A stretch of 64,000 nucleotides of DNA from Pseudomonadales bacterium (GTDB taxonomy: Bacteria > Pseudomonadota > Gammaproteobacteria > Pseudomonadales > JAUIET01), in NCBI GenBank assembly GCA_045105115.1, contig JBGCDE010000207.1:20290-84289 (forward strand). Direction: 5' to 3'. The notes beneath the pieces were generated by a model. The model had not been told where the DNA came from. It did no database searches and worked only from the letters and a program-made list of their open reading frames with translations. Shown here piece after piece: positions 14,444 through 22,516 of the stretch (the first letter of the stretch is position 1; the number at the start of each line of letters is the position of its first letter). The position numbers and the translations under genes are program-made.

Positions 14444-16579
14444 CTATGCAGGCGTGTTTTCGATTGATTGAAAATTAAGCGAAACCGCGTTTAGCATGCG
14501 TTTGAAGCTGTTAAGGAAGTCAGAATTTGAGTAATGCGCCTCTATATGACGCTGTGCAGCTTGCACCGTATTTCTGCGCATCTCGGCGTTGTCCAGAGTC
14601 GCCAACAAGATAGTTCCCCAATCGGCTGGATTACTCACCAAGGTACCGCGGCTTCTACCAATCACCTCACGATATACTGAGTGATTACTGGCCACTACGC
14701 TCGCGCCTACCGCACTGTACTCTAGCCACTTTGTATTCGACTTATGCCGGTTGAACCGTATGTTACTCAGCGGACACAGGCCAACAGACCAGCGTCTGCT
14801 CGCCAAAATGCTTAAGAATTGATCGTAATTCCAGTCGGGTGGAATAACCCTGACTCTATCGCCAAATCGCTCAAGCTGGTGTGGTTTAGGAATAGTGCCC
14901 AGTAGCTCAAACTCTGCTTCAGGCCTTTGGTCGAGTACGGCTACTATTCCATCAAGAGCCAGTGCCAGGTCTTGCTCATGCCCAAACCCCATATAGCCGA
15001 AACGCAGAGGCTGAGTTTGATCATAAGTCTGCATCACCTGCCCCGGACACAATCTTTGCGCCGTATGAATAGGTGTATTGAAACGCTGACTTTTCAAAGC
15101 CTCACTAAGTGAAGGGGTCGCAGAATAAATCAGGTCTGCTTCGCGCAGCTGGTAACGTAAGCGCTCCTGGCGGACCGGATCGGAATAGAACTTGTGTTTA
15201 TCCAAACCAATATCAAGCGGTACGTCTAATAAATTATCATCGAGACAGCAGACCACCCGTGCGCCTTGCTGCTTCGCTTTTCGCAAAATTCCCTGGGCAT
15301 GCTGCCCCGTGTAACGACAAAACACCACAAGGTCTGGCTGATAGCGCGACAACACTCTATCTGCATAGGTACGAAACACCAGAGTTCCTGCGCCACGCAC
15401 TCTGCCAACGGCGCCGATATCAAGCTCTGTCAGCACCTCGCACTCAATATCGCCCGCATCGATCACGTCACGTAAAGGATGAGTGAACGCCAATTGCAAG
15501 GTCGGCAAGTTAGTAGAGTTCGCGACCAGTAGCATTTTCAAAGGTGAGCTTTTTCTGGCCCTCGTTACGACTGATGATTTATTTTGGGCGGCACGGTATT
15601 CATTGGCCGCTACCTGCTTTAGCGGCAAATAGACGCGCTGCATGAATCGTTCGAACGCGCCATGTTCTGTCTGTGTCTCGATTGACGCTTGATAACTACG
15701 CTGCAGGCGCTCTCGTTTGCGATTAGCCTGAATGACTTGCTTGTGTGGAACGAAACCAGCCTCTTCATCTATACCATGATATTTTTTTCGATTCTGCTCT
15801 GATATCACTGAGCTATTAGTCCGTGAAATATCATTCAGCTCTTCCAGCAGAGAAGGTCGCGCGTAAGCCAATTTGATTTCAGTTTCAATGCTCTCACGGC
15901 TTATTGCGCCTTCTTGAAGCATTTGATGTAATGTTGATACCCATAAATGACCATGTTTGTTAGCTGCTGAGACCCAGGGTTGCGTGTGCATATCGGTGAA
16001 ATGCAGATTGCAGGTAGAATCATCCCAATACTCCAGACTGTTCCATTGCGGCGGAATGGCGTAGCCCAACTCATGGTCTTCCAATATACAAAGCTCATTC
16101 ATCAGTTCTTTATAGGTGTACTGTCCGTCTAACCCCGCGATGATGTCTTCTGCGTTCCATTCCAGGCGGCCGCAATCCAGCACGCAGACCGCGGTTTGTT
16201 TAGGCCTTCGTTTTTTTTTGAACAATCTGGTATTTGTTTTTTTGGCGATTACATCACTTTGAATCAACATCTTGTGCCCATTCATGGGAATGTCCCACAA
16301 ATCACCAATATCAGAAAACACCAACATGTCAGCGTCCATGTAGATGGCCTTACCTTTATTGCCCGCAAGCTTTGGAATGGCGAATCGGCTGAATGAAAAA
16401 CCTGTGCGCGCAAGTTGACGCTTATCGGTCGGCTCTGGAAGCTCTACATGCTCCAGACTGTGAATCTGAAATGGGCGTTGCGTGTGCTTTGCAATACTGT
16501 ATTCCAGCACCTGCAAACCGATGCGCTGCGAGCGATCGGTACCTACATAGATTTGAATGGTTGCTGTGTTATGGGTCAT
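14444..16579 (-). CDS. Two-domain glycosyltransferase (GT8-like N-terminal domain plus GT-B/GT4-like C-terminal domain), cytoplasmic
   Basis: 711-aa ORF with no signal peptide. The N-terminal domain starts IQIYVGTD and has a DxD motif in AIYMDADMLVF, typical of GT8. The C-terminal ~350 aa has a GT-B-like pattern (KWLEYSAVGASVVASNHSVYREVI). Its stop lies 224 bp upstream of the RTX start codon on the same strand. Confidence 0.75.
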   Translation of the reverse strand: MTHNTATIQIYVGTDRSQRIGLQVLEYSIAKHTQRPFQIHSLEHVELPEPTDKRQLARTGFSFSRFAIPKLAGNKGKAIYMDADMLVFSDIGDLWDIPMNGHKMLIQSDVIAKKTNTRLFKKKRRPKQTAVCVLDCGRLEWNAEDIIAGLDGQYTYKELMNELCILEDHELGYAIPPQWNSLEYWDDSTCNLHFTDMHTQPWVSAANKHGHLWVSTLHQMLQEGAISRESIETEIKLAYARPSLLEELNDISRTNSSVISEQNRKKYHGIDEEAGFVPHKQVIQANRKRERLQRSYQASIETQTEHGAFERFMQRVYLPLKQVAANEYRAAQNKSSVVTRARKSSPLKMLLVANSTNLPTLQLAFTHPLRDVIDAGDIECEVLTELDIGAVGRVRGAGTLVFRTYADRVLSRYQPDLVVFCRYTGQHAQGILRKAKQQGARVVCCLDDNLLDVPLDIGLDKHKFYSDPVRQERLRYQLREADLIYSATPSLSEALKSQRFNTPIHTAQRLCPGQVMQTYDQTQPLRFGYMGFGHEQDLALALDGIVAVLDQRPEAEFELLGTIPKPHQLERFGDRVRVIPPDWNYDQFLSILASRRWSVGLCPLSNIRFNRHKSNTKWLEYSAVGASVVASNHSVYREVIGRSRGTLVSNPADWGTILLATLDNAEMRRNTVQAAQRHIEAHYSNSDFLNSFKRMLNAVSLNFQSIENTPA

Positions 16580-16785
16580 CCTTGCCCGCTCTTGCCCGAT
16601 ATAGTTCTCTTTGGAAAACGCCCAAAGCCCACATTATGTGGCCACGTGCATCAACATGCTGAGAGTACGGCGTCCTTGCTGTATTTTTGCTTTATTCTTT
16701 TCTCTACTCACCCAGTGTAGTTCAAAAAGCGGAAATTCACTGCTTGAATGGCACTAATCCCATGCTGAGCACGGCCTGGCTGTTC

Positions 16786-18990
16786 TCAGTGCAATCGAAT
16801 TTGAGCTTGCTGAGTTGCACGCTCGGTGATCACCCCGATACGTTGTATGCTAGCACCGGCATCCAGCAATTTCTTCTCTTCGTCGCGAGAAAGAATGATC
16901 AGCATGCCCCCATTAGTTTGTGGGTCTAACAGCAAATCTCTTTGAATATTTGAGACTGAATCAGAAATTTCACAGCTGTTAAGATAGTGCTGCAACTCAG
17001 GAAACAAACTGGAATGGCAACCATCTGCAATCAGGCGCTCCGCTCCCGGTAAGGCTGGAATAGCGGCTAACTCTAACTGAGCCGCAAACCCTTCTGCGGG
17101 CAACATTTCCAACAAGTGCCCAATTAGACCAAAGCCACTAATATCGGTTACCGAGCTTGGTAACGTTCCATGCAACAACTGCCACAAACTTCGATTACTG
17201 CCCAACATGCTACTCAGTGTTGAATCTAGCTCACTCACGGTAGCAAGTGATTGCATATCAGCAGCCAGTACAACACCCGTACCCAGACCCTTATTCATCA
17301 CAATGACGTCGTCATGGTTTGCTCCACACTTGGACCAACGATTCGTCAAGGACAGTTCGCCATTCACCACAACGCCGAGATGATCTTCAGCACCTTCTGA
17401 ACTGTGACCGCCAGCCAGTGCCGCCTCATGCATCAGCAAAGCGTCACTAACACCATTCATCATTCTTAGATGGTCACGTTGCTGTAAGCGTGAATGCGCA
17501 AATTTTAAATTTGCCCATACTTGCACGTACTTCGGAGTTGCACCCATTGCGTACAAGTCGTTCATCGCATGATGCACCGCAATCATCGCAAACAAATAAT
17601 GGTCTTCAGTGAAACTGCGAAAGCCGTCGATACTTTGCACCATGGCCATATTGCTTGAAGGTTGCCAAACGACAGCGTCTTCAATCGTATGCAGCGCTGA
17701 ATGTAAGCTTTCGCTATCAGCAGCAGGCAGCTTGGCCAAATTTTCATATAAACCTGCGGGACCCAACTTGCTTCCACAGCCTGCACAATGCATCTTCTCT
17801 TCCGCATTCCCGACACCTGGCCCTGTAGACGAACCCGCCGCCGACACCATTGAATCGTTTTTCGATAGCTCGGAAAACTGTCGCATAAACGCCGCATCAA
17901 TTGAATTCTTCCAGCGCCAGACCCAGCGACCAGACAAGGTCAGACCATTTCGACAAGCTATTGCCGATTTATCTCCCAATGTTATCAATCTTAGGAATTC
18001 AGATTGCAACCGCACTTTTTTATATGCATCTTTAGAAAAAAATCGACGAAGATTCTCAGCCAGATAAGGTGCTTGTCTTACCGCATACACTCCGGCTTTT
18101 GGTTTGGGGTCATTAACCAAACAAGCGATATCACCTGCTGCAAATACATTGTCATGAGAAATACTTTGCAAATAGTCATTAACGTTTATAAAACCTTTAT
18201 CGTCGCAGTCAAGGCCACTCCCAGATGGCCAACCTGCTGCAACGGCATCGGTACTAACAAACACTTTGTCCATTGGCAGGAATTCATCGTTACTGGACCA
18301 AACACCTTCGGCAGTCACCTTACTTAAGGTGAAACCTGCGTGCTGTTCTACTTTCAACAGGGCGAGCTGCGCATTTGCAATTTCAACAGCTTTAGTCGTT
18401 GTTCCCGGCATTACATGCTCGCTGTTGTACAACAAGTGTAATCGGCAGTTATCACGGTCTCGCAAACGGTGCGCAAGCGACAGACATAACTCTGTGCCGC
18501 CAACACCAGCACCAACAACTGCAATACGCTGTAGCGTTGCTTGATTTTGCAGTACACCTTCCAGCTCTGCCCATTGACGATGGAACTGGGCAATCGGCTT
18601 CACACCGGTTGCGTATTCATACCCTTCAATTGAATCGAAAGAAGGACAAGAGCCGGTATCAATTGACAGGCAATCGTAAGACAGCGGCGCCTGGTTTTCT
18701 ATGTGTACTTCACGCGCGTCAAGCTCAAGATCAATCACTCGACCTTTTATAAAGCGAATACCCGCTGCCCTGCATAAGGCATTAAGATTAATTAGCGTAT
18801 CTGATTTTTCGAAATGGCCGGCTATGTAACCTGGCAACATACCTGAGTAGGGCGTATCACCCTGCTCAGACACCAGCGTAATGCGCACCTCTGGAATAGC
18901 TTTCATGGCAAACGATTTTATGGCCAGCACATGAGCGTGCCCGCCGCCAAGTAACACCAGATCGTGTTTGTAGAAGGGCACACTATTCAT
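16786..18990 (-). CDS. selD: Selenide, water dikinase SelD fused to an N-terminal FAD/NAD(P) pyridine-nucleotide-disulfide oxidoreductase (NDH-2-like) domain
   Basis: The SelD N-terminal motif HCAGCGSKLGP aligns with E. coli GAGCGCK and keeps the Cys17 and Lys20 equivalents. The N-terminal half carries dinucleotide-binding motifs VLLGGGHAHV and VVGAGVGGTEL. The longest ORF starts at 19044. I prefer the ATG at 18990 (MNSVPFYKHD), which overlaps the selU stop as ATGAATAG. Confidence 0.85.
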   Translation of the reverse strand: MNSVPFYKHDLVLLGGGHAHVLAIKSFAMKAIPEVRITLVSEQGDTPYSGMLPGYIAGHFEKSDTLINLNALCRAAGIRFIKGRVIDLELDAREVHIENQAPLSYDCLSIDTGSCPSFDSIEGYEYATGVKPIAQFHRQWAELEGVLQNQATLQRIAVVGAGVGGTELCLSLAHRLRDRDNCRLHLLYNSEHVMPGTTTKAVEIANAQLALLKVEQHAGFTLSKVTAEGVWSSNDEFLPMDKVFVSTDAVAAGWPSGSGLDCDDKGFINVNDYLQSISHDNVFAAGDIACLVNDPKPKAGVYAVRQAPYLAENLRRFFSKDAYKKVRLQSEFLRLITLGDKSAIACRNGLTLSGRWVWRWKNSIDAAFMRQFSELSKNDSMVSAAGSSTGPGVGNAEEKMHCAGCGSKLGPAGLYENLAKLPAADSESLHSALHTIEDAVVWQPSSNMAMVQSIDGFRSFTEDHYLFAMIAVHHAMNDLYAMGATPKYVQVWANLKFAHSRLQQRDHLRMMNGVSDALLMHEAALAGGHSSEGAEDHLGVVVNGELSLTNRWSKCGANHDDVIVMNKGLGTGVVLAADMQSLATVSELDSTLSSMLGSNRSLWQLLHGTLPSSVTDISGFGLIGHLLEMLPAEGFAAQLELAAIPALPGAERLIADGCHSSLFPELQHYLNSCEISDSVSNIQRDLLLDPQTNGGMLIILSRDEEKKLLDAGASIQRIGVITERATQQAQIRLH

Positions 18991-20101
18991 GGTTATGGCC
19001 AAGCTCATGCAACCAGTGCAAAACCTCGTTATGTTCGCCTGCAAAAGTAATGCGCTCTTGCTGCTTGCTTAACTGATAGTCATACATTTTGTCATAGTAG
19101 TTACTGAGCAACTGCGAGAATATTTCATCAAAGCCACTCCAATCGTGATGATGACGAAGTTGCTGCATCGCTTCAGGTAATAAATTGCTCAGCAACTGAT
19201 GCCTCGCCCCACCAAGGCGTTTTTTTATTCGATCAAATGAAGACTGTATTGATGTCTGCAAGCTCTCCCAGGCGCTACTTGGCTTTTCATTGTGTACCAT
19301 GAAATGATCAAGTGCGAACTGAACATAGTCACGCCGCAAGCGCTGCAATCGATCGTCAAAGCTTGCAAGCAGTTGCACCATTGGCGCCTTACTCATTGCT
19401 TGTTGCAGTTGTGCGGGTAAGTTCAAACGACCAATTAATCTGGACTCGGCCTCGACCAGTATTGGCCCAGACCCAACTGCGTCTTTTTTTATCCAGTCAA
19501 TAATCACCGCGTTTTCAAAATCGATCTGACTTGGCTGCGGATCAAACATTGCACCAAACGCGCTGCCTCTGTGATTTGCATGTCCCTCCAAATCAATACT
19601 CTGACCAAAGGCCAGCAACAGATCGGTCTTGCCAACGGCTGTTGCACCGGCAACAACAGTTAATCGACTGCTAGCTGACAAGCGCTCTAGCTCGGAAAGC
19701 AGAAAACGACGAAGCGATTTGTAGCCACCTTCTACCAATGGGTACTCTACGCCAGCTTCACGCAACCATTGTTGAGTAGTCTGCGAACGAAGCCCCCCTC
19801 TGTAACAATACAGATACCCATCCGGATAGCGTTGAATGTGACTGAGCCAGGCATCCATACGCTGAGCACGAACATCGGGTGACGCCAGTTCCAAGCCGCG
19901 CTCAATGGCGGCTTCTTGGCCGCTCTGAGCATAGATGCAGCCTATATCGTGGCGTTGCGCGTCATCAAGAATTGGCTGATTACTTGTATTGGGAAATGCA
20001 CCCGCCGCGAATTCAACGGGTGCGCGAACGTCCATCAAGTGCTTGTCACTCAGAAAGAGGTGGCGAAAATCCGCGACGTTGATATTGGCAGTTCCTGCCA
20101 T
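18983..20101 (-). CDS. selU: tRNA 2-selenouridine synthase (SelU/MnmH/YbbB)
   Basis: Rhodanese-type N-terminus with MDVRAPVEFAAGAFP and the active-site loop CYRGGLRSQ, followed by LVEGGYKSLRRF and the P-loop GATAVGKTD. By eye it is collinear with E. coli YbbB. Confidence 0.85.
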   Translation of the reverse strand: MAGTANINVADFRHLFLSDKHLMDVRAPVEFAAGAFPNTSNQPILDDAQRHDIGCIYAQSGQEAAIERGLELASPDVRAQRMDAWLSHIQRYPDGYLYCYRGGLRSQTTQQWLREAGVEYPLVEGGYKSLRRFLLSELERLSASSRLTVVAGATAVGKTDLLLAFGQSIDLEGHANHRGSAFGAMFDPQPSQIDFENAVIIDWIKKDAVGSGPILVEAESRLIGRLNLPAQLQQAMSKAPMVQLLASFDDRLQRLRRDYVQFALDHFMVHNEKPSSAWESLQTSIQSSFDRIKKRLGGARHQLLSNLLPEAMQQLRHHHDWSGFDEIFSQLLSNYYDKMYDYQLSKQQERITFAGEHNEVLHWLHELGHNHE

Positions 20102-20102
20102 G

Positions 20103-20621
20103 CTATTCAGGCACCGCCATTGGCATCAGGGGCAATTCATGTTCTGGCATCCCGCCAAAGGCGACGGCGCAACGAGAGAAGGTATTAAACAACAGTAGGG
20201 CAAGCGACATGTGCGCCAGCTCAGCCGTGGTGAATTCCTTACGCAACTTGTTCTCGGTCGCGTCACTGATGCGTTCAGGCGACTTCAGATAGTATTCACA
20301 AAAAGTGAGTATTAGTTTTTCTCGCTCGCTCAGATCACTGGTCGCGAAGTGCTCATCGATCTTTTCAATTTTTTGTTCGGTCAATCCCGCTTGCGTTGCA
20401 ATATCGTAGCGTACAGCTTTGCAGAAAACACAGCCAACCTCCCTGGCATTGCGCAACCGAATCATCTCAAGCTCTGCCGGGCTCAGAGGTCCCTCTTTCC
20501 AAACGGCGGCATTAAGCTTCAAATACGGCTCTACCACCTCTGGCACCAAACCCAGTGCCGAATCCCTGACAACGTTACCGGTTTTCTCTGTAGGGGAGCT
20601 CGTTATCCGAGATGCCGTCAT
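20103..20621 (-). CDS. Carboxymuconolactone decarboxylase / AhpD-fold protein with a CxxC motif
   Basis: 172 aa with the typical CMD pattern ELEMIRLRNAREVGCVFCKAV. The CxxC is present, but the His that usually follows it is not. There is a 1-bp gap to the selU start and a 4-bp overlap with the upstream CMD gene. Confidence 0.65.
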   Translation of the reverse strand: MTASRITSSPTEKTGNVVRDSALGLVPEVVEPYLKLNAAVWKEGPLSPAELEMIRLRNAREVGCVFCKAVRYDIATQAGLTEQKIEKIDEHFATSDLSEREKLILTFCEYYLKSPERISDATENKLRKEFTTAELAHMSLALLLFNTFSRCAVAFGGMPEHELPLMPMAVPE

Positions 20622-21106
20622 TGTGTTTGCTCCGCTTGATCAATGTCAGCAAAACCCCAGAGTTTGCAAAGACGGACCTCAGCATAAAATACACCCAGAG
20701 CCTGAACCAATGCGACCAGCCCCGGCTCTCCAAAATACTCCTTCACAGCGTCCGCTTGTGCATCAGTGATTGCATGCACGTCTATGGCATACACCTCTGC
20801 AAAAGCCAAACAGGCTTTTTCGCTGGAAGAAAACTGCGAATTGTTTGACCACAGCGACACTGCTTTTGCCAATTCCTGGCCAACAGCTGCATCCCCACTG
20901 TTCGTTGGTAGACTGTGCAATTGCGCCATTCGAATTCTGCAAAGTCGTAACACATCAGCCGGAAGTTGTGACAGCGCGCCAAAGCTCTGTCGAAAATCAG
21001 CGTACAGCGGGCTCAGCTCAGAATGCTGTGCCAGCCAATCGCTTAGACTACCAACGGGACGATCTTCATTCACGGTCGCATACTCGCAGATATAACCATG
21101 CAGCAT
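20618..21106 (-). CDS. Carboxymuconolactone decarboxylase / AhpD-fold protein lacking the CxxC motif
   Basis: 162 aa with a CMD-like helical pattern (LRLCRIRMAQLHS ... EKACLAFAEVYAID ... LVALVQALGVFYAEVRL). It is the first gene of the tightly coupled CMD-CMD-selU-selD string. An AGGAA sequence sits 9 nt upstream of the ATG. Confidence 0.55.
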   Translation of the reverse strand: MLHGYICEYATVNEDRPVGSLSDWLAQHSELSPLYADFRQSFGALSQLPADVLRLCRIRMAQLHSLPTNSGDAAVGQELAKAVSLWSNNSQFSSSEKACLAFAEVYAIDVHAITDAQADAVKEYFGEPGLVALVQALGVFYAEVRLCKLWGFADIDQAEQTQ

Positions 21107-21113
21107 TATAAGG

Positions 21114-21138
21114 ATTCCTAAACATCATTTGTAGGAAT
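21114..21138. promoter_or_regulatory. 7-bp inverted repeat ATTCCTA-N11-TAGGAAT between divergent start codons
   Basis: Read directly: attccta at 21114-21120 and taggaat at 21132-21138. Each arm contains the AGGAA(T) Shine-Dalgarno-like sequence of one of the two divergent genes, whose starts are at 21106 (minus) and 21137-21143 (plus). Confidence 0.3.
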
Positions 21139-22516
21139 GATGATGTCATGCCAATATCTTTACATGGCTGAACTCGACCCACTATTACTGTCCAGACTGC
21201 AGTTCGCGCTGAATATCAGCTTTCATATCTTGTTTCCAAGCCTATCGATCGGTCTTGGCTGGCTACTCTTTTACTTCCGTGTTCGCAACACCATCAGCGG
21301 CGATCAGGCGTGGGCATACGCTTACCATTTCTGGGTGAAGGTATTTGCGCTGACGTTTGCGCTGGGCGTGGTCTCAGGCATTGTGATGAGCTTTCAGTTC
21401 GGCACTAACTGGCCAGGGTTTATGGAGCGAGCAGGCAATATTGCGGGCCCGCTATTGGGTTATGAAGTGCTGACGGCTTTTTTTCTGGAAGCCAGCTTCC
21501 TGGGCATCATGCTGTTTGGTAAAAACCGGGTGTCTAATCGTGTGCACCTGATCGCCAGTTTTTTTGTGGCATTTGGAACCACACTGTCAGCTTTCTGGAT
21601 ATTGGCGCTCAATTCATGGATGCAAACGCCGACAGGGTATCGAATCGAGAATGGCGAATTCTTTCCCGAAAGTTGGTTCGAGATAATTTTTAACCCAACG
21701 TTTCCATATATGTTTACGCACATGATGAATGCGTCGTTTCTAACGGCTGCTTTTTTTGTCTGTGGTATTAGCGCCCTGCGTATCCGCAATGGTTTGGATG
21801 GACCAGCCACGAGAAAGATATTGCGCTCCGTGGTATGCATTGCCGCCGTACTGGCACCGCTGCAAATTCTGATTGGTGATTTTTATGGCTTGCACGTCAG
21901 CAAGAGCCAACCTGCAAAAGTGGCCGCGCTAGAGGCTGTTTGGGAGACCACGCGTGGTGCCAATCTGACTTTATTCGGATGGCCTGATGAAGATCTAAAA
22001 GAAACCCGCTATAGCGTGGAAATACCCAAGCTCGGCAGTTTAATACTAACCCATGATTTGAATGGGGAAGTGAGAGGCTTGAACGAATTTGAGAACGCGC
22101 ACCCACCCGTAGCACCTGTATTTTTCGCATTTAGAGTAATGGTTGGAATTGGCGCATTGATGATTCTCACCGCCTGGCTGGGTGTTTGGCAAACCCGCAG
22201 CCGCGCCGAACCCAATGGCTTAGGCTTGCGACTCATGTCGTGGATGACGTTCTCCGGCTGGGTTGCCACCCTGGCGGGTTGGTACGTCACCGAGGTAGGT
22301 CGCCAGCCATTTATCATTTATGGCCAGTTGCGCGTAGCCGATATTGTTGCGGACCATGGGCAAGGCCCACTGCTGGGCTCCTTGCTGGCTTACGCAGTTG
22401 TGTACTGCGTACTGCTGATTGCTTACATCAGTACCATTCGCTATATGGCCAGCAAACCAGCCGCATCACTGGCTATGCAAGCGCAATGGACCCGACCCGG
22501 AGAATCTCATGGCTGA
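21137..22516 (+). CDS. cydA: Cytochrome bd-type quinol oxidase subunit I (short Q-loop, CioA-like)
   Basis: The sequence ELDPLLLSRLQFALNISFHILFPSLSIGLG is a typical CydA N-terminus. The 459-aa length implies a short Q-loop. There are three tandem ATGs at 21137, 21140 and 21143, and the AGGA at 21133-21136 favours 21143. Confidence 0.85.
   Translation: MMMSCQYLYMAELDPLLLSRLQFALNISFHILFPSLSIGLGWLLFYFRVRNTISGDQAWAYAYHFWVKVFALTFALGVVSGIVMSFQFGTNWPGFMERAGNIAGPLLGYEVLTAFFLEASFLGIMLFGKNRVSNRVHLIASFFVAFGTTLSAFWILALNSWMQTPTGYRIENGEFFPESWFEIIFNPTFPYMFTHMMNASFLTAAFFVCGISALRIRNGLDGPATRKILRSVVCIAAVLAPLQILIGDFYGLHVSKSQPAKVAALEAVWETTRGANLTLFGWPDEDLKETRYSVEIPKLGSLILTHDLNGEVRGLNEFENAHPPVAPVFFAFRVMVGIGALMILTAWLGVWQTRSRAEPNGLGLRLMSWMTFSGWVATLAGWYVTEVGRQPFIIYGQLRVADIVADHGQGPLLGSLLAYAVVYCVLLIAYISTIRYMASKPAASLAMQAQWTRPGESHG

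Follow-up and report, generated by a model that had tools for sequence, protein, structure and literature searches.

Layout and coupling of the four genes

We analyzed a 64,000-nucleotide stretch of a Pseudomonadales bacterium (lineage JAUIET01; contig JBGCDE010000207.1), referred to below as the window, in which four consecutive minus-strand genes encode two small AhpD-like proteins (CMD1 and CMD2), the tRNA 2-selenouridine synthase SelU, and a selenide, water dikinase (SelD) fused to a flavoprotein domain (Ndh-SelD). We consider it rather probable that the locus is a known selU-Ndh-SelD cassette that shares an operon, in one small clade, with an uncharacterized and widespread AhpD-like gene pair. 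A dedicated selenium-delivery module that would include the CMD pair is not supported by the sequence comparisons.

All four genes are present in the list of open reading frames (ORFs) of the window (Table 1), and the gene identities given in an earlier note on this DNA were borne out by Pfam and NCBIfam profiles and by an alignment to Escherichia coli SelD. The same note had proposed translational coupling, and each of its junctions can be read in the sequence. The CMD1 stop and the CMD2 start have a common ATGA (20618-20621), a 4-bp overlap; CMD2 and selU are joined as TAG-C-ATG, with the TAG ending at 20103 and the selU ATG at 20101, which leaves a 1-bp gap; and selU, ending at 18983, overlaps the selD ATG at 18990 by 8 bp (ATGAATAG). 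The last overlap was calculated with the ATG at 18990, while the longest ORF opens at a TTG at 19044; the TIGR03169 model starts at residue 10 of the ATG-18990 version. Judging from these overlaps, the four genes would be co-expressed from one transcript.

Table 1. Coordinates of the genes and fusion domains in the window
Feature	Position	Strand	Description
CMD1	20618-21106	minus	162 aa; divergent AhpD/CMD-fold protein without CxxC
CMD2	20103-20621	minus	172 aa; AhpD-like/CMD protein; PF02627; CVFC
selU/mnmH, tRNA 2-selenouridine(34) synthase	18983-20101	minus	372 aa; NF008751, TIGR03167
NDH-2-like flavoprotein::SelD fusion	16786-18990	minus	734 aa counted from ATG
Fusion N-terminal NDH-2/SQR-like FAD-dependent pyridine-nucleotide oxidoreductase domain	17875-18963	minus	TIGR03169, PF07992
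Fusion C-terminal SelD (selenide, water dikinase) domain	16786-17802	minus	TIGR00476

Upstream, CMD1 is divergently adjoined by cydAB (cytochrome bd oxidase), with CMD1 and cydA head-to-head. CMD1 may alternatively start at a GTG at 21073, giving 151 aa, instead of the ATG at 21106. Distant CMD1 homologues and the protein P0127 start at the position equivalent to this GTG, and its use would widen the spacer between CMD1 and cydA from approximately 30 to approximately 63 bp.

The selU and Ndh-SelD genes form a known cassette

SelU matched NF008751 with 444.7 bits (cut-off, 361) and TIGR03167 with 318 bits (cut-off, 219.75). Its translation contains the rhodanese cysteine motif CYRGGLRS and the P-loop GATAVGKT, which we take to be the catalytic motifs established for E. 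coli SelU. The N-terminal domain of the fusion scored 422.3 bits against TIGR03169, "Nterm_to_SelD" (cut-off, 310; residues 10 to 372), and 91.8 bits against PF07992, and it carries the GxGxxG-type dinucleotide-binding motifs GGGHAH and GAGVGG. The SelD domain matched TIGR00476 with 217.2 bits (cut-off, 125) and aligned to E. coli SelD (3u0o) with an E value of 3.7e-29, in which the catalytic Cys17 and Lys20 are kept and Cys19 is replaced by Ser. Its active-site loop, C-A-G-C-G-S-K, is of the CxxC form with the Lys. Both marks of an Ndh-SelD fusion, an N-terminal TIGR03169 domain and a CxxC in the SelD site, are thus present. We also considered the class TIGR04369, "fusion_not_SelD," an oxidoreductase/SelD-related fusion, and rejected it because the score of 416.2 bits is under the cut-off of 700; this class is further countered by four congeners that use the operon fusion gene as their sole selD beside selU, selA, and selB.

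Fusions of this kind have been described repeatedly. Ndh-SelD proteins account for approximately 40% of the Cys-type SelDs in the GOS ocean metagenomes, where a CxxC was always present in the SelD active site of the fusions, and their function was termed "not fully clear" (Zhang et al. 2008, PMC2398784). A later survey found Ndh-SelD to be the commonest SelD fusion, with the extension at the N-terminus in all cases, and predicted the fusions to be still active as selenophosphate synthetases (Mariotti et al. 2015, PMC4561486). We searched the literature for biochemical studies of the oxidoreductase domain and found nothing relevant, and the statement of the earlier note that the fusion is known yet mechanistically unexplained agrees with both papers. 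The protein in the window has the same two-domain architecture, N-terminal extension, and Cys-type SelD with a CxxC, and likewise comes from a marine/aquatic gammaproteobacterial setting; nothing substantive sets it apart, and it agrees with the described Ndh-SelD in every respect tested. Its placement is familiar as well, since selU lies directly beside selD on the same strand, as in known selD-selU (ybbB) pairs. In contrast to those pairs, the unit in the window is led by the two AhpD-like genes, an arrangement seen only in the genus of the window and one sister lineage.

A second full-length Ndh-SelD of 750 aa is encoded elsewhere in the metagenome-assembled genome (MAG) of the window (G000), on the plus strand of contig C52 (L001:156-2408). 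It scored 487 bits against TIGR03169 and 262 bits against TIGR00476, has the active-site sequence CGGC, and adjoins genes for a class I S-adenosylmethionine methyltransferase and a GtrA-like membrane protein. This copy was found only in the MAG of the window and is absent from five congeners. Its composition lends no support to a binning contaminant, as the contig has a GC content of 0.506, compared with 0.50 for the genome.

CMD1 and CMD2 are AhpD-fold proteins, and one of them lacks the CxxC

CMD2 is a member of PF02627 (34.5 bits; gathering score, 23). In an alignment of 23 homologues (A1), C64-V-F-C67 is invariant and C151 is nearly so, and profile searches of the PDB returned PA0269, Atu0492, and the AhpD of Deinococcus radiodurans with E values of 1e-12 to 1e-10. 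Its AlphaFold2 model (pLDDT, 87.5) gave Foldseek TM-scores of 0.77 to 0.83, with the same top matches as the model of CMD1. CMD1 itself had no Pfam or NCBIfam match and falls below PF02627 membership, and PF02627 was matched by 4 of the 16 members of its family. The CMD1 and CMD2 families nonetheless align with each other at 96.9% in an hhalign profile-profile comparison, a PDB search with the CMD1 family profile returned PA0269 (E = 9e-4), and the CMD1 model (pLDDT, 79.8) matches PA0269 (2ijc) and D. radiodurans AhpD in Foldseek with a TM-score of 0.73 and a probability of 1.00. CMD1 is thus a genuine AhpD-fold protein despite the lack of a family match of its own, and the assignment of this fold to both small proteins in the earlier note holds. 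C56 and C99 of CMD1 are invariant in its family (alignment A2), and at the position of the CxxC motif the family alignment and hhalign place H-S-L/G-S. The CxxC of catalytic AhpD is therefore present in CMD2 and absent from CMD1.

The closest characterized proteins are the PA0269-type AhpD-like proteins (PDB 2ijc, 2o4d, and 7xw1; Atu0492, 2gmy; PMC3141380), which have an all-helical AhpD-like fold in common with CMD1 and CMD2. The CxxC of CMD2 sits on the equivalent helix, and the Foldseek TM-scores for the pair span 0.73 to 0.83. The genes in the window differ from them in that two paralogues form a fixed pair, one without a CxxC, and in that the sequence identity of CMD1 and CMD2 to PA0269 is only 17 to 27%.

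AhpD-like selenoprotein families with a CxxU motif (COG2128/PF02627) exist in the GOS marine metagenomes (PMC2398784); they belong to the same superfamily as CMD2 and have the redox motif at the same position, whereas CMD2 and all of its homologues examined encode Cys. The second redox position of CMD2 is a TGC codon in the window, that is, Cys and not selenocysteine, and none of 21 genomic CMD2 matches has an in-frame stop. We searched metagenome contigs (241 million records) with the strict pattern TGY GTN NNN TGA AAR NNN GTN CGN TAY GAY and found no CxxU homologue of CMD2, with UxxC forms not searched. Two matches to the pattern were out of frame and without CMD2 homology and were rejected as chance. 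The UGA-encoded homologues of CMD2 that the earlier note had suggested looking for did not turn up in either search.

The CMD pair occurs mostly away from selenium genes

To survey the pair across species, the CMD2 family alignment was scanned against one genome per species, which yielded 80 loci (L011 to L090); flanks of up to 8 kb were fetched and the neighbors tested by tblastn with the proteins of the window. In 80/80 loci, CMD1 immediately precedes CMD2 on the same strand. selU and Ndh-SelD follow the pair only in the four closest loci (L011 to L014), in which CMD2 is at least 63% identical, and neither selU nor selD was found within the fetched flanks of the other 76. These unlinked loci belong to Halieaceae, other Cellvibrionales and Pseudomonadales, Steroidobacteraceae, and Rhodospirillales, and include a complete 3.4-Mb chromosome (L015) that carries the pair with no selU or selD in its 8-kb flanks. 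The neighbors of the pair vary among them: acyl-CoA ligases, short-chain dehydrogenases/reductases, thiolase-like proteins, acyl-CoA dehydrogenases, PurE, and Baeyer-Villiger monooxygenases. In a maximum-likelihood tree of CMD2, the window and L011 to L014 form one clade (94/92) nested among unlinked Halieaceae/Cellvibrionales sequences, a pattern that fits a single linkage event. The pair is thus, as judged from these sequences, an autonomous two-gene cassette found in variable contexts, older and more widespread than its linkage to selenium genes. CMD1-CMD2 stands out as an uncharacterized, fixed pair of unlike AhpD-like proteins, of which CMD2 has a CxxC and CMD1 does not.

The cydAB genes also adjoin the operon in L011 to L013, as judged by ORF length and position only, and this bears on another explanation, in which the CMD pair serves peroxide or disulfide defense and the promoter head-to-head with the cytochrome bd oxidase also drives selU-selD. 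We regard this as quite improbable, and hold no likelier its corollary that the oxygen-sensitive selenium chemistry would be protected by, or co-expressed with, the CMD proteins without their touching selenium. The nearest structural relatives of the pair, PA0269, D. radiodurans AhpD, and Mlr4105, are AhpD-type antioxidant proteins, which is consistent with such a role. However, L014 has the four-gene unit without cydAB beside it; none of the ORFs adjoining the operon in the ORF list was recognized as AhpC or another peroxiredoxin, the kind of protein with which catalytic AhpD works, along with a lipoamide/SucB-type reductant; and a promoter/terminator scan of positions 16300 to 21600 was at chance level, with 5 found versus 5.6 expected.

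At the genus level, co-occurrence with selU is at background

We then asked how often the pair and the selenium genes occur together, in a sample of 301 genomes drawn evenly from the order of the window. CMD2 was present in 21 of them and selU in 146. Adjacency of CMD2 and selU was seen only in the genus of the window (g1), in 6/6 genomes. At the genus level, selU occurred in 5/8 CMD2-positive genera and in 62/126 others (Fisher P = 0.72), which is the background rate. Five CMD2-positive genomes had neither selU nor selD over the cut-offs (G192, G285, G229, G107, and G262), among them one that is a single contig and 98% complete (G192) and one that is 99% complete (G107). CMD2-positive genomes outside the genus that do have both genes keep them away from the pair: selD and selU are adjacent and unfused in G089, selU is followed by Ndh-SelD in G180, and a fused selD lies beside selU in G024, which has an unfused selD besides. 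In a further one, G077, selU and selD are dispersed.

Seen from the selenium side, approximately 5 kb on either side of selU was inspected in 40 genomes, each representing a different genus other than that of the window, and no CMD1 or CMD2 homologue was found at any of the 40 loci (hidden Markov model [HMM] E value of ≤1e-3). The A1 and A2 HMMs are family specific, the pair in the window being their sole match in the whole of G000, so this result concerns this CMD family only and not AhpD-like proteins in general. In 26 of the 40 genera, selD is found no more than 5 kb from selU, 9 to 10 of these being Ndh fusions, and the order selU-Ndh-SelD was seen in several genera. In the sister genus g2 of the same family (G220), selU is followed by the start of an Ndh-type gene at the contig end, and no CMD2 was found anywhere in that genome.

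Within the genus itself, the congener G187 has a 669-aa DUF3604 gene (PF12228, 758 bits; L098:4846-6855) between CMD2 and selU, with a 4-bp overlap at the CMD2 stop, and this gene appears to be an unrelated insertion into the unit. Its N-terminus appears lipoprotein-signal-like by eye, and DUF3604 is expanded in G000, with approximately 20 paralogues.

A literature search found no papers in which SelD or SelU is connected with AhpD or CMD proteins, and a 2015 candidate-gene survey has no mention of either protein type (PMC5322559).

These results have to be set against several observations that weigh in the other direction. The four-gene order with its overlapping or 1-bp junctions is kept in the genus. 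Of the four linked loci, three are from close relatives (SelU, 68 to 78% identical; SelD domain, 73 to 83%), and L014 has the order as well, with identities of 54% for SelU and 46% for the SelD domain, which speaks to some degree for a linkage that is tolerated or favored and not transient. Co-occurrence at the genome level is nominally enriched (16/21 versus 130/280; P = 0.011), but this value is inflated because two well-sampled genera drive it. CxxC-containing AhpD-like proteins are, moreover, chemically able to handle Se-S intermediates.

Such observations would suit a recruitment restricted to this lineage, in which the AhpD-like pair of the genus has become a selenium-trafficking or -reducing partner. 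We judge this unlikely, and the same holds for its detailed form, in which selenite, selenotrisulfide, or perselenide species would be reduced at the CxxC of CMD2, and CMD2 and the flavoprotein domain would jointly supply the CxxC of SelD with selenide. Besides the tight coupling of all four genes and the retention of the arrangement in 6/6 genomes of the genus and in L014, this explanation could draw on the invariant CxxC and the third conserved Cys of CMD2, the two invariant Cys of CMD1, and the CxxU selenoprotein families of marine metagenomes. We think still more doubtful the specific proposal that CMD1 and CMD2 were recruited in this genus to be the thiol partner that Ndh-SelD lacks, with electrons passing from NAD(P)H through FAD to the CxxC of CMD2, which would reduce selenite or selenotrisulfide and hand selenide to the CxxC of SelD; if true, the flavoprotein domain of Ndh-SelD would gain a defined electron acceptor. 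Against recruitment stand the greater age and far wider distribution of the pair, its presence in genomes without selD and selU and its absence from the 40 selU loci of other genera, the identical selU-Ndh-SelD cassettes that do without it in other lineages, the unrelated gene for a putatively exported DUF3604 protein that splits CMD2 from selU in G187, and the failure of the CxxU pattern and the 21 genomic matches to reveal a selenocysteine-containing CMD2.

The earlier note had proposed a self-contained selenium module and had named the absence of enrichment with selenium genes in other genomes as a finding that would speak against it. This is essentially what we observed, at the genus level, at the selU loci, and in the five genomes without selU or selD; with a pair that is intact in every locus and linked to selU-selD in one clade only, the module is not upheld. 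A physical or metabolic tie between the CMD pair and selenium is not needed to account for the data.

Selenium use is probably not limited to selenouridine in the genus

No selA, selB, or gene for selenocysteine tRNA was found in the window, as the earlier note had said, and its further suggestion that selenium may serve only tRNA 2-selenouridine proved unsafe. In G000, which is 89.7% complete in 284 contigs, we likewise found no selA, no selB over the cut-off, and no selenocysteine tRNA among the 31 tRNAs detected, and there was no match for YqeC, a third selenium trait. By comparison, selA and selB scored over the cut-offs in 4/5 congeners, and a 98%-complete congener (G150) has neither. The place in G000 that is syntenic with the selA region of congener G062 (L101, G062:C1:12000-31900) coincides with an assembly gap: contig C54 ends within tuf on one side of it, and C201 begins on the other. 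That selA and selB were not found in G000 can therefore not be read as a loss. Each congener has one selD only, the operon copy, so that in congeners with selA and selB this SelD would also serve selenocysteine synthesis.

Downstream of selD, the minus strand of the window encodes a 711-aa two-domain glycosyltransferase (GT8 and Glyco_trans_1_2; 14444-16579), which is also found after selD in all four linked relatives. A selenoneine (senABC) cluster was considered and rejected, since this protein has the two Pfam domains and no NCBIfam match and is not SenB-like; SenB (TIGR04348) had no match over the cut-off in G000.

A model for the locus and its significance

Taken together, the locus may be viewed as two units of different ancestry that have been joined. 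In the first, as predicted by homology, the SelD domain would make selenophosphate from selenide and ATP, and SelU would use it to turn 2-thiouridine into 2-selenouridine at position 34 of tRNA-Lys, tRNA-Glu, and tRNA-Gln. The fused flavoprotein domain may perform an NAD(P)H- and FAD-dependent redox step that feeds or recycles the CxxC site of SelD. As the sole SelD of the genus, the protein would also supply selenocysteine synthesis wherever selA and selB occur. The second unit would be a PA0269-type, AhpD-like two-gene cassette, with CMD2 carrying the redox-active CxxC and CMD1 its CxxC-less paralogue. The two proteins may function jointly, probably assembled into a hetero-oligomer with CMD2 as its only catalytic member, and their role is most likely a general one in thiol-disulfide or peroxide redox chemistry, not specific to selenium. 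selU-selD would have come to lie directly downstream of the pair in an ancestor of the genus and one sister lineage.

Were the AhpD-like pair a redox partner of Ndh-SelD, what the flavoprotein domain of the fusion does could be put to the test. The comparative evidence argues against that role, and its use here is as a clean negative for the selenium link. What the analysis brings out in its place is a fixed pair conserved across Halieaceae, related gammaproteobacteria, and some alphaproteobacteria, at least 80 species in all, and its recognition should be useful in its own right.

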